64,000 nucleotides of DNA from contig JAQUUP010000007.1 of assembly GCA_028693815.1 (NCBI GenBank), positions 4,921-68,920 of the forward strand. The letters are read 5' to 3'. Source of the stretch: Candidatus Omnitrophota bacterium. Its GTDB lineage: Bacteria; Omnitrophota; Gorgyraeia; Zapsychrales; Aceulaceae. Below are positions 61,215 through 63,926 of the stretch, piece after piece. Below the pieces are notes generated by a model, which saw nothing but the letters and a program-made list of their open reading frames with translations, did no database searches and had not been told where the DNA came from. A program made the position numbers and the translations under genes. Each line of letters starts with the position of its first letter. The first letter of the stretch is position 1.

Positions 61215-63191
61215 ATGGCAGGCAAAACAAGTAAGTATGTTTATTTTTTTGGTGGTGGAAAAGCAGAGGGCAAAGCTTCAATGAAGGAGCTTTTTGGTGG
61301 AAAAGGTGCTAATTTAGCGGAGATGTCAAGCATTGGCGTTCCAGTGCCAGCAGGTTTTACGATTACGACAGAAGTTTGCGCATATTATGATAAGAATAAT
61401 AAAAAGAAACCAGCAGGGTTAGATAAAGAAATTGATGCAAATATCACTAAGATTGAAAAAGTGATGGGTGCAAAATTTGGAGATAAGAATAATCCTCTTT
61501 TGGTTTCTGTTCGAAGTGGCGCTGCCGTTTCTATGCCGGGTATGATGAATACAGTTTTGAATCTTGGTATCAATGATGATGCAGTTGAAGGTCTAGCTAA
61601 GAAAACAAATAATGAGCGCATGGCTTGGGATTCTTATAGACGTTTCATTAATATGTTTGGCGATGTTTGCATGGGTGTTGACCATGAGCATTTTGAGCAT
61701 GAGCTAACGCGTATTAAGAAAAAGTATAACCGAAAATTAGATTGCGAATTAACAACTCAAGAATTAAAAGAAGTTGTTGATGCTTATAAAGAAGTATACA
61801 GAAAGAGTGTTGGAAAGGATTTCCCAACAGCCGCACGCGAGCAACTTTCTTATGCGATTGATGCTGTTTTAGGTTCATGGAATATTCCAAGAGCGGTTGC
61901 TTATAGAAATATTAATAAGCTTTTTGGGCTTAAAGGAACAGCAGTTAATGTTCAGTCCATGGTTTATGGAAATATGGGCGATAATTCTGGAACAGGTGTT
62001 GCGTTTACACGTAATCCTGCTGATGGAACAAACAAATTCTTTGGTGAGTATTTGATTAATGCCCAAGGGGAAGACGTTGTGGCTGGTATTCGTACCCCTG
62101 ATCCGATTTCAACTTTGAAAACGAAAATGCCAAAGATTTATAAAGAGCTTGATACGATTCGATTAAAGCTTGAGCGACATTATCGTGATATGCAAGACGT
62201 TGAGTTTACGATTCAAGAAGGCAAGCTTTATATGCTTCAGACGAGAACCGGAAAAAGAACTGGTTTAGCGGCTGTTAAGATTGCTGTTGATATGGTTAAA
62301 GAGAAATTGATTAAGCCAGAAGAGGGATTGATGAGAGTTGAAGGCGATCATTTGAATCAACTTCTTTTCCCAATTCTTGATCCTAAGGCAAAGCTTGAGG
62401 CTATTTCTGCAAAACGCGTTTTGGCCAGAGGTTTGCCAGCAGGTCCAGGAGCATCAAACGGACAAATTGTTTTTACGGCTGATGATGCTGTGAAGTGGGC
62501 TGAAAATGGCAAAAAAGTTATTTTGGTTCGAAAAGAAACTTCTCCAGAAGATGTTTCTGGTATGTGGGCTGCTCAAGCAATTTTGACATCAACAGGAGGA
62601 ATGACTTCGCATGCAGCTGTTGTTGCTCGAGGTTGGGGCAAATGTTGTGTGGTTGGTTGTGCGGCTTTGGATATTGACTATAAAACAAAGACAATCAAGG
62701 TTGATGGAAAAGTTTTAGAAGAAGGCGCCGAGGTTTCTATCGATGGTTCAACAGGAGAAATTGTTTTAGGACATGTTGAGACATCTTCTTCGCCAGTTGT
62801 TTCAGGGATTATTGACAAAAATAAAGCTGCACTAAAACATCCAATTTGCCAGATTTTCTTGGAAGTGATGAAATGGGCAGATAAAGCACGAGAAATCAAG
62901 GTTCGCACCAATGCGGATTCTCCAAAAGATGCACAAAATGCACGTGCGTTTGGCGCAGAAGGTATTGGCCTTTGCCGAACAGAGCATATGTTTTTTGAGG
63001 GCGATCGTATTTGGGCTATTCGAGAAATGATTCTTGCCAACGATGTCGCTGGTCGAGAAGCAGCTCTTAAGAAACTTCTTCCATATCAAAGAAAAGATTT
63101 TGAAGGTATTTTTAAGGCTATGGATGGATTACCTGTTACAGTGCGTCTTTTAGACCCACCTTTACATGAGTTCTTGCCTCACGATGCCTAA
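61215..63191 (+). CDS. ppdK: pyruvate, phosphate dikinase, N-terminal 658 codons, ending at an in-frame TAA
   Basis: PEP-utilizer/PPDK motifs ([22 protein letters not shown]; ...[15 protein letters not shown]). Confidence 0.85.
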   Translation: [658 protein letters not shown]

Positions 63192-63203
63192 GGGCAAGAA
63201 GAG

Positions 63204-63926
63204 ATGGCAAAGCGTTTAAACATAACACCAGAAGCGGTTAAAGCAAAAGTAGATTCTCTTCACGAGATGAATCCTATGTTTGGTCATCGTGGATGCCGAT
63301 TGTCGATTACTTATCCTGAAATTTGCAAAATGCAGGTAACAGCGATTATGGAAGCGGCATGCAACATGGCTAAGAAAGAAATTAAAGTTCTTCCAGAGAT
63401 CATGATTCCTTTGATTGGAACAAAGGCAGAATATGATATTCTAGAAGCGATTTCTCGTAATACGGCCGAAGAGATTATCAAAGCTAAAGGTGTTAAGGTT
63501 AATTATCTTGTTGGAACCATGATGGAAATTCCTCGTGCAACACTTGTTGCCGACAAGGTTGCTGAAAAAGCAGAGTTTTTCTCATTTGGTACCAATGATC
63601 TTACACAGATGACGTTTGGCTATAGTCGTGATGACGTAGCAACATTTTTACCTGAATATATTGATAAGAAAATTGTTAGAGATGATCCGTTTGCTTCTAT
63701 TGATCAGGAAGGTGTAGGTGAACTTGTTATCACAGCGGTGAAACGTGGTCGATCGACACGCAAGAATTTAAAGTGTGGTGTTTGCGGCGAGCATGGTGGG
63801 GACCCAGCGAGTGTTAAGTTTTTTGTTAGAGCCGGTCTTAATTATGTTAGTTGTTCACCCTATCGTGTGCCAATTGCACGTTTAGCAGCAGGACAAGCAG
63901 CGCTTGAAGCTAAAAAGAAAAAATAA
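63204..63926 (+). CDS. ppdK: pyruvate, phosphate dikinase, C-terminal PEP/pyruvate-binding domain (same frame as upstream part)
   Basis: Continues in the same reading frame: [40 protein letters not shown]...; TIM-barrel motifs [15 protein letters not shown]. Confidence 0.85.
   Translation: [240 protein letters not shown]

Follow-up and report, generated by a model that had tools for sequence, protein, structure and literature searches.

Pyruvate, phosphate dikinase (PPDK) of Clostridium symbiosum (EC 2.7.9.1; PDB 1DIK, 1KBL, 1KC7) is one full-length polypeptide of three domains. The genes closest to the one described here are those of Candidatus Aceula lacicola and Candidatus Aceula meridiana, Omnitrophota metagenome-assembled genomes from Ace Lake (L008, L001; P0003, P0006). 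The members of this clade ferment sugars and glycerol and conserve ppdK strongly (PMC8542988), so that losing the gene would be expected to carry a cost. Cases of programmed recoding (selenocysteine UGA, pyrrolysine UAG, leaky readthrough) have a stop codon in frame within the gene of a conserved enzyme. One disabling substitution in an otherwise conserved ortholog, with no sign of decay, is what young unitary pseudogenes and nonsense alleles of bacterial genomes, and isolated metagenome consensus errors, look like. The ppdK examined here lies in a 64-kb stretch of DNA, hereafter the window. It has the same three-domain order as the C. symbiosum enzyme but is broken by a TAA, in the following arrangement:

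61215..63926, + strand: ppdK (pyruvate, phosphate dikinase), 903 codons including one internal TAA, defined by translation, Pfam and synteny
61215..63191, + strand: 5' ORF of ppdK, 658 codons plus TAA; nucleotide-binding domain, phospho-His domain and barrel strands 1-3
63189..63191, + strand: in-frame TAA, codon 659 of ppdK, with T at 63189 where the ancestral Lys codon has A
63190-63194, + strand: AAGGG, a Shine-Dalgarno-like motif lying partly in the 12-nt spacer, 9 nt upstream of the ATG at 63204
63192..63203, + strand: 12-nt in-frame spacer GGG CAA GAA GAG (G-Q-E-E), ordinary ppdK coding sequence that includes the GAAGAG tract
63204..63926, + strand: 3' ORF of ppdK, 240 codons plus TAA (63924-63926); helical excursion and barrel strands 4-8

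The ppdK frame was continuous over its 903 codons, with the TAA at 63189-63191 as the sole break, and PPDK homology spanned the entire frame. The read-through product of 903 aa was identical in length to its closest homologue, P0001, and aligned with it residue for residue. The initial annotation had described ppdK as cut by a single in-frame TAA, with a 658-codon ORF followed 12 nt later by a second ORF in the same frame and without frameshift or indel. Sequence and translation, the ORF coordinates (the ATG at 63204 lies 12 nt past the TAA, in the frame of the 5' ORF) and the gap-free alignment to P0001 bore out these points in turn. A PPDK is expected to be a single unbroken polypeptide of ~870-910 aa, and the internal TAA means that the window ppdK does not encode one.

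The two ORFs shared one domain. The 5' ORF contained, in order, PPDK_N (PF01326), PEP-utilizers (PF00391) and positions 8-95 of PEP-utilizers_C (PF02896), and the 3' ORF matched positions 96-291 of that last profile, directly continuing the 5' ORF match. With their matches adjoining on a single Pfam profile, the two ORFs are not chance neighbours. The barrel region aligned end to end with 1KBL (E = 1.5e-145). In the AlphaFold model of P0001, whose residue numbers match those of the window ppdK, the strand positions show that the TAA cuts the PEP/pyruvate TIM barrel ((beta/alpha)8) after strand 3 of 8. The break had been placed between the His domain/linker and the barrel; the Pfam matches and the model show this to be wrong, since it falls inside the barrel.

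The catalytic His motif and the CGVCGEHGG Cys motif were both present in the translation, aligned to 1KBL/2DIK, and the 3' ORF carried the latter together with the NPM(F) motif. The active site of C. symbiosum PPDK comprises His455, Arg561, Arg617, Glu745, Asn768, Asp769 and Cys831. Equivalents of all these residues were found across the two pieces, those of Arg561 and Arg617 on the N piece and those of Glu745, Asn768, Asp769 and Cys831 on the C piece. The TAA lies 15 residues past the Arg617 equivalent, at about residue 632 of the C. symbiosum enzyme. Since the active site and the barrel are thus divided, the C piece is not a self-contained domain. In the P0001 model codon 659 corresponds to the start of a surface helix following barrel strand 3, a position that is variable among relatives (K 78, A 37, E 11, others).

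The conserved gene order panB...glyQS-ppdK-sigma makes the window ppdK a syntenic ortholog of the Candidatus Aceula ppdK, which is intact, and not a spare paralog. The genes of Ca. Aceula lacicola and meridiana share 91-92% amino acid identity with it over 903 residues, with identical length and gene neighbourhood, but have Lys (AAA) in place of the TAA; dS values of ~0.6-1.0 indicate that they belong to different species. Lys occupied this codon in 6/6 of the closest relatives (91-92% identity), as AAA or AAG in the three read as DNA; the orthologous codon was AAA in L001, L008 and L003, and AAG in L004, L006 and L078. The lesion therefore turned AAA into TAA by changing A to T at 63189. A single substitution from GAA, CAA or AAA had been proposed; a single substitution it is, and the Lys orthologs leave only AAA as a fitting precursor.

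Inspection of sister genomes, a check put forward in the initial annotation, found ppdK intact, with Lys at this codon in the six closest relatives. None of 160 related loci had a stop near the DPPLHEF motif (within 60 codons), and none of 31 aligned close proteins had one at codon 659. Among 8000 database matches, the best 120 all measured 855-995 aa and contained all three domains, and none of these shared the stop. The window gene is thus disabled relative to intact syntenic orthologs, and the alternative raised at the outset, a split PPDK as the normal state of this lineage, does not hold: the stop occurs in the window alone. Isolated ppdK lesions did occur in other metagenome contigs, at a frequency of ~1% (one in-frame TAA elsewhere in the gene in L139, two frameshifts in L158). 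No copy from the same species was found, the best identity being 92% among 185,579 species genomes, 88% among JGI metagenome contigs and 92% among 5.8 billion protein clusters. The public assembly index likewise contained no exact match to the 5' ORF, the 3' ORF or the neighbouring GlyRS.

Apart from the TAA, the gene appeared to be under normal constraint. Pairwise dN/dS was 0.04-0.08 both upstream and downstream of the TAA, and nonsynonymous to synonymous changes on the window branch numbered 18:40 upstream versus 11:27 downstream (Fisher p = 1.0). Three window changes fell at highly conserved ppdK sites, within the range of 0-5 seen in relatives. Neither relaxed selection nor further lesions were found in ppdK, in a comparison whose nearest relatives (dS ~0.6) are too distant to reveal a short period of neutrality. 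Judged from these substitution patterns, such absence of relaxation would fit an artefact, a mutation of very recent origin or a gene whose function is undiminished. The lack of decay implies that the lesion, if real, is very young.

TAA acts as a normal terminator in this DNA. It ends 42/64 ORFs in the window, or 41/63 long ORFs when ppdK is left out, and TAA-terminated ORFs end where Pfam/NCBIfam domains are complete. The earlier view that TAA is a genuine terminator of accB (119..577) and accC (590..1951), making global reassignment unlikely, is therefore upheld. An alternative genetic code was rejected on this stop-codon usage. The idea that TAA is a reassigned sense codon, or is generally suppressed, in this genome has only the single in-frame ppdK TAA in its favour. 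It is effectively refuted by the TAA-ended ORFs with complete domains, by the other same-frame ORF pairs parted by one stop, which like the overlapping pairs proved to be distinct complete genes, and by the tRNA content of the window, where the sole tRNA is tRNA-Gly(CCC). The suggested count of in-frame TAA in other genes, run within the window, revealed no stop- or frameshift-interrupted gene among the ~45 others checked. With those ORF pairs complete and the large housekeeping genes intact, general assembly noise and pervasive pseudogenisation in the window were likewise rejected.

We favour, at a probability of about 0.5, a genuine and very recent nonsense mutation in a Candidatus Aceula-like Omnitrophota population, by which AAA (Lys659) became TAA at 63189. 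Translation would end efficiently at TAA-G, and the 658-aa product set free by the ribosomes would carry the ATP/Pi-binding and phospho-His domains but, of the eight strands of the PEP/pyruvate barrel, no more than the first three. Such a product would presumably be inactive, being incapable of the pyruvate/PEP half-reaction, and since its barrel is truncated the allele would amount to a loss of function or, at most, a strong hypomorph: a nascent pseudogene rather than a programmed feature. That the T at 63189 is real is suggested by the absence of interrupted genes elsewhere in the window, which argues against an error-prone assembly and modestly favours a true variant. The cost expected of losing so conserved a gene weighs against a knockout.

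The main rival is an error of sequencing, assembly or consensus, which we consider a possible though somewhat less probable source of the T. The organism would then carry AAA (Lys) and an intact ppdK, the T being a miscall, a polishing error or a minority variant that entered the consensus. Several observations agree with this: apart from the T the gene is flawless, without a further lesion, with low dN/dS upstream and downstream and with its catalytic motifs intact; it is conserved and unbroken in every close relative; other public contigs carry isolated ppdK lesions; and the window appears to derive from an uncultured lineage known mostly from metagenome-assembled genomes. Against it, the ~45 uninterrupted genes in the same 64 kb indicate a low local error rate, and systematic errors do not typically take the form of an A-to-T transversion away from homopolymers. 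Moreover, only a few percent of random substitutions create a stop, so that within one window a stop produced by error is expected a priori less often than a genuine segregating nonsense allele.

Of the three options listed in the initial annotation, nonsense mutation and sequence error are thus both still live, whereas programmed readthrough or reinitiation is disfavoured by the uniqueness of the stop, its TAA-G context and an unremarkable RNA fold around it (z = -0.74). Known cases of programmed recoding differ from the window ppdK, where the stop is TAA, is absent in relatives, lacks a recoding element and is the normal terminator. We know of no natural sense reading of TAA in bacteria, and TAA-G is an efficient terminator. 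No suppressor tRNA was found in the 64-kb window. The ATG at 63204 and GAAGAG had been taken as possible start signals for a separate C-terminal domain. Any start there would be of ancestral coding origin and not an evolved one, as they encode the conserved E-E-M of ...GQEEMAKRL..., present, like AAGGG, in intact relatives; GAAGAG adjoins the ATG without a spacer. Nor was a promoter-like site for the 3' ORF detected on the + strand over ~1.5 kb upstream, where overall counts were at shuffle level.

An unprogrammed lesion might still be real and leave PPDK activity in place, through low-level readthrough of the TAA or through reinitiation 12 nt on with the split barrel reassembling. This we regard as unlikely. 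Codon 659, at the start of a surface helix, is variable enough that any residue should be acceptable on readthrough; an in-frame ATG follows the stop after 12 nt, with AAGGG 9 nt before it; and relaxed selection downstream was not seen. Reinitiation in E. coli persists at very short distances, falling steeply with an 80-100% loss at +38 nt, and varied between gene pairs at +2 and +14 nt (PMC10666635). On the other side, a stop unique to the window is not one that has been selected for, the ATG and the purine tract belong to the ancestral reading frame, termination at TAA-G should be efficient, and the active site is divided between the pieces. Neither a conserved or significant RNA structure nor a promoter-like site or a suppressor tRNA in the window supports expression past the stop. 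An exhaustive search of a representative library with the 3' ORF found no PPDK naturally split at this site; the short 3'-ORF matches inspected had non-start first residues or aberrant tails, which mark them as uninformative contig-edge fragments. A natural split would be expected to be shared by relatives and to fall at a domain boundary, and this one is confined to the window and lies inside the barrel. Less probable still is a tolerated allele in which reinitiation, or occasional readthrough, supplies 658-aa and 240-aa products that reassemble non-covalently into an active PPDK split after strand 3. Were such reassembly to occur, it would catch the fission of a gene within its TIM barrel as it happens in a natural population.

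If the favoured nonsense mutation is real, PPDK has only just been lost or crippled in one population or cell line of Omnitrophota; in relatives of the clade the enzyme belongs to a scheme of sugar and glycerol fermentation based on pyrophosphate. Its loss would be of interest only if the allele is fixed or if the rest of the genome offers a way round it (by pyruvate kinase, PEP synthase or PEP carboxykinase). The lesion is of an ordinary, already known kind, with nothing distinctive relative to nonsense alleles or consensus errors, the isolated ppdK lesions of L139 and L158 being comparable, and the finding matters little overall. For annotation, the two ORFs should be recorded as one disrupted ppdK and not as two genes, and the base at 63189 bears on whether PPDK is counted as present or absent in metabolic reconstruction.

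Finally, the TAA lies in the loop of a local RNA structure:

63171..63200, + strand: 9-bp hairpin with the TAA in its loop (63171-63179 pairs with 63192-63200), -13.8 kcal/mol

This hairpin is specific to the window, not being conserved in relatives, and was unchanged when A was restored at 63189; it is probably incidental.

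Single-frame translation of 61215-63929 yielded one frame of 903 codons for ppdK (pyruvate phosphate dikinase, PPDK), with the TAA at 63189-63191 as its sole internal stop and the TAA at 63924-63926 as its own terminator. Translation and ORF list agreed that the initial annotation had placed this lone in-frame TAA correctly to the base. The pieces are as follows.

61215..63191, + strand: ORF1, 658 aa
Between ORF1 and ORF2: in-frame spacer of 12 nt, GGG CAA GAA GAG
63204..63926, + strand: ORF2, 240 aa

ORF1 matched the Pfam models PPDK_N, PEP-utilizers and positions 8-95 of PEP-utilizers_C, and ORF2 matched positions 96-291 of the latter. 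Since a single PEP-utilizers_C model runs unbroken over the stop, the two ORFs represent one gene with one lesion, not two chance ORFs. Judged by architecture and motifs, this gene is a PPDK, differing from a working one in a single feature, the uninterrupted polypeptide.

A homologue scan of one genome per species assigned the window to Omnitrophota; the best matches were Candidatus Aceula lacicola (L008, 92%), a MAG (L004, 92%) and Ca. Aceula meridiana (L001, 91%), followed by other Omnitrophota (76-82%). Ca. Aceula are anaerobic fermenters of sugars and glycerol, and carry an Rnf complex and the membrane pyrophosphatase HppA (Williams et al. 2021, PMC8542988). The window shares its gene order (panB, three small ORFs, glyQS, ppdK, sigma-factor-like gene) with these three loci, which makes the interrupted ppdK the syntenic ortholog of their intact gene rather than a spare copy in decay. 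In sister genomes the gene is intact with Lys at the stop position, encoded by AAA in L001, L008 and a further related locus, L003, and by AAG in L004, L006 and L078; K was also found there in 6/6 database proteins of 91-92% identity. A single A-to-T transversion at 63189 thus turned AAA into TAA. Of the earlier proposal of a single substitution from GAA, CAA or AAA, the single substitution and AAA stand. The position is variable among 160 related loci (K 78, A 37, E 11, others).

A split PPDK is not the normal state in this lineage: no stop lay within 60 codons of the DPPLHEF motif in any of the 160 loci, and the best 120 of 8000 matches in 5.8 billion protein clusters were all 855-995 aa long with all three domains. 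Unlike a naturally split enzyme, the window's split is neither common to relatives nor at a domain boundary. One related locus, L069, lies on contig JBDRLL010000017.1 of an archaeal MAG (labelled Candidatus Altiarchaeota archaeon). Its PPDK shares 61% identity with the bacterial enzyme of the window and ranks among Planctomycetota-type sequences; it could reflect binning contamination or lateral transfer.

The main correction concerns the position of the break, previously put between the His-domain/linker and the TIM barrel. Pfam, alignment and structure model place it inside the barrel. Aligned to Clostridium symbiosum PPDK (1KBL/2DIK/1DIK, E = 1.5e-145), the stop falls at about residue 632 (1DIK numbering), 15 residues past the Arg617 equivalent. 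In the AlphaFold model of P0001, the closest database protein (92% identical, equal length; mean pLDDT 83.7), codon 659 occupies the second position of surface helix 658-668. Barrel strands 562-566, 584-588 and 640-644 lie ahead of it and strands 726-731, 765-770, 788-792, 853-857 and 877-880 past it; the stop therefore splits the (beta/alpha)8 barrel between its third and fourth strands. In the C. symbiosum enzyme the pyruvate/PEP site comprises Arg561, Arg617, Glu745, Asn768, Asp769 and Cys831; the 658-aa piece would carry equivalents of the first two and the 240-aa piece those of the other four, so that a complete catalytic domain is present in neither.

Programmed readthrough or reinitiation, suggested in the initial annotation, was not borne out by the absence of the stop from all 160 loci, nor by the RNA fold of 131 nt around it, which was no better than shuffles (z = -0.74). 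The TAA sits in the 12-nt loop of a 9-bp hairpin (63171-63179, UUCUUGCCU, paired with 63192-63200, GGGCAAGAA; + strand). This hairpin, at -13.8 kcal/mol (45-nt segment) versus -4.5 to -12.0 in relatives, is weaker or absent there, and is unchanged when A is restored at 63189. No promoter-like site was found on the + strand within ~1.5 kb upstream of ORF2, and counts of such sites equalled shuffle expectation. The ATG at 63204 and the GAAGAG tract had been read as start signals of ORF2; the ATG encodes the Met of GQ(E/A)EMAKRL, a conserved residue within the protein, and GAAGAG the E-E ahead of it, and because both occur in intact relatives they are not evolved start signals. Post-termination restart at this ATG, with AAGGG 9 nt upstream, is mechanically conceivable. 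In E. coli, reinitiation becomes far less efficient as the distance grows (80-100% lost at +38 nt), and at +2 and +14 nt the outcome differed by gene pair (Huber et al. 2023, PMC10666635). No sign of selection for this restart was seen. Compared with programmed readthrough, the stop (context TAA-G) lacks conservation and an element, and is the wrong codon.

TAA ends 42 of the 64 long ORFs in the window (TAG 11, TGA 11). Paired open stretches of at least 70 codons split by one stop occur at five places on the + strand and three on the - strand; besides ppdK, the long pairs are different complete genes (accB/accC, PFK/SIS-domain protein, TatD/Fe-S protein, HD-GAF protein/SPOR protein, AAA ATPase/unknown ORF). 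ORF pairs overlapping out of frame are likewise distinct complete genes, not frameshifted halves. UvrB, GroEL, GuaA, AroB, dGTPase, DnaE, HisRS, a class II aaRS, PhoH and a helicase match their models over the full length, and none of ~45 other genes checked carries a lesion. These observations rule out, for the window, both reassignment of TAA, already thought unlikely in the initial annotation, and a generally noisy assembly; ppdK does not resemble a case of alternative genetic code.

No decay of ppdK was detectable. Pairwise dN/dS against L001, L004 and L008 was 0.060-0.080 on the 5' side of the stop and 0.040-0.056 on the 3' side, and window-branch nonsynonymous:synonymous counts were 18:40 and 11:27, respectively (Fisher p = 1.0). 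Three substitutions affect sites at least 95% conserved in 140 relatives, which themselves have 0-5:

61293-61295, + strand: L27F
62454-62456, + strand: A414S
63279-63281, + strand: L689F

Relatives vary little or not at all at these positions; L689F sits in the NPM-L-GHRGCR motif, 30 codons past the stop. The lesion is either very young relative to the dS of ~0.6 between species, or an artefact, or tolerated.

Exact look-up found no identical copy of ORF1, ORF2 or GlyRS, and genome, metagenome and protein collections yielded no ppdK match above 92% identity. Isolated ppdK lesions occur in 2/160 related public loci, which gives a base rate. In L139 (JGI contig Ga0224504_10007788) the frame is continuous but for one in-frame TAA elsewhere in the gene (locus nt 509-511, ADAEAAV*KNSDAKVVLVR), just ahead of the phospho-His domain. 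L158 (FUWD013033996.1) has two frameshifts, at about nt 1188-1206 and 2362-2372 (tblastn frames 1, 3, 1), likely an assembly error or pseudogene.

The ~45 checked genes without another lesion imply a low local error rate, and a random substitution gives a stop in no more than a few percent of cases; our ratings follow from these two points. We favour a real, young nonsense allele (probability roughly 0.5). A consensus error, against which both points count, is a possible but less probable source of the TAA. It is unlikely that the stop is real and functionally tolerated, through readthrough or a reassembled split barrel, and TAA as a sense codon is scarcely credible given its use as terminator. 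Taken together, this is an unremarkable disruption by one base, which marks either an incipient pseudogene or a sequence error. What is gained is a corrected anatomy of the lesion (AAA to TAA, within the TIM barrel); the locus should be annotated as one disrupted ppdK and the base checked against reads.

Strand bias is strong across the window, where 60/64 long non-nested ORFs lie on the + strand. The sole long ORFs opposite are:

13648-15006, - strand: two ORFs
30877-31224, - strand: one ORF
45696-47876, - strand: DEAD/DEAH helicase, 726 aa, Pfam "archaeal helicase, domain 4" match

The helicase, opposite to nearly all its neighbours, has a Hel308/Ski2-like architecture. Gly(CCC) is the sole tRNA of the window, and Rfam gave no further match. 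Stretches of 350-560 nt without an ORF of at least 100 aa or an Rfam match occur at 22176-22736, 38136-38573, 49648-50040, 50398-50791 and 57685-58040; groES probably lies in the first of these, ahead of groEL.
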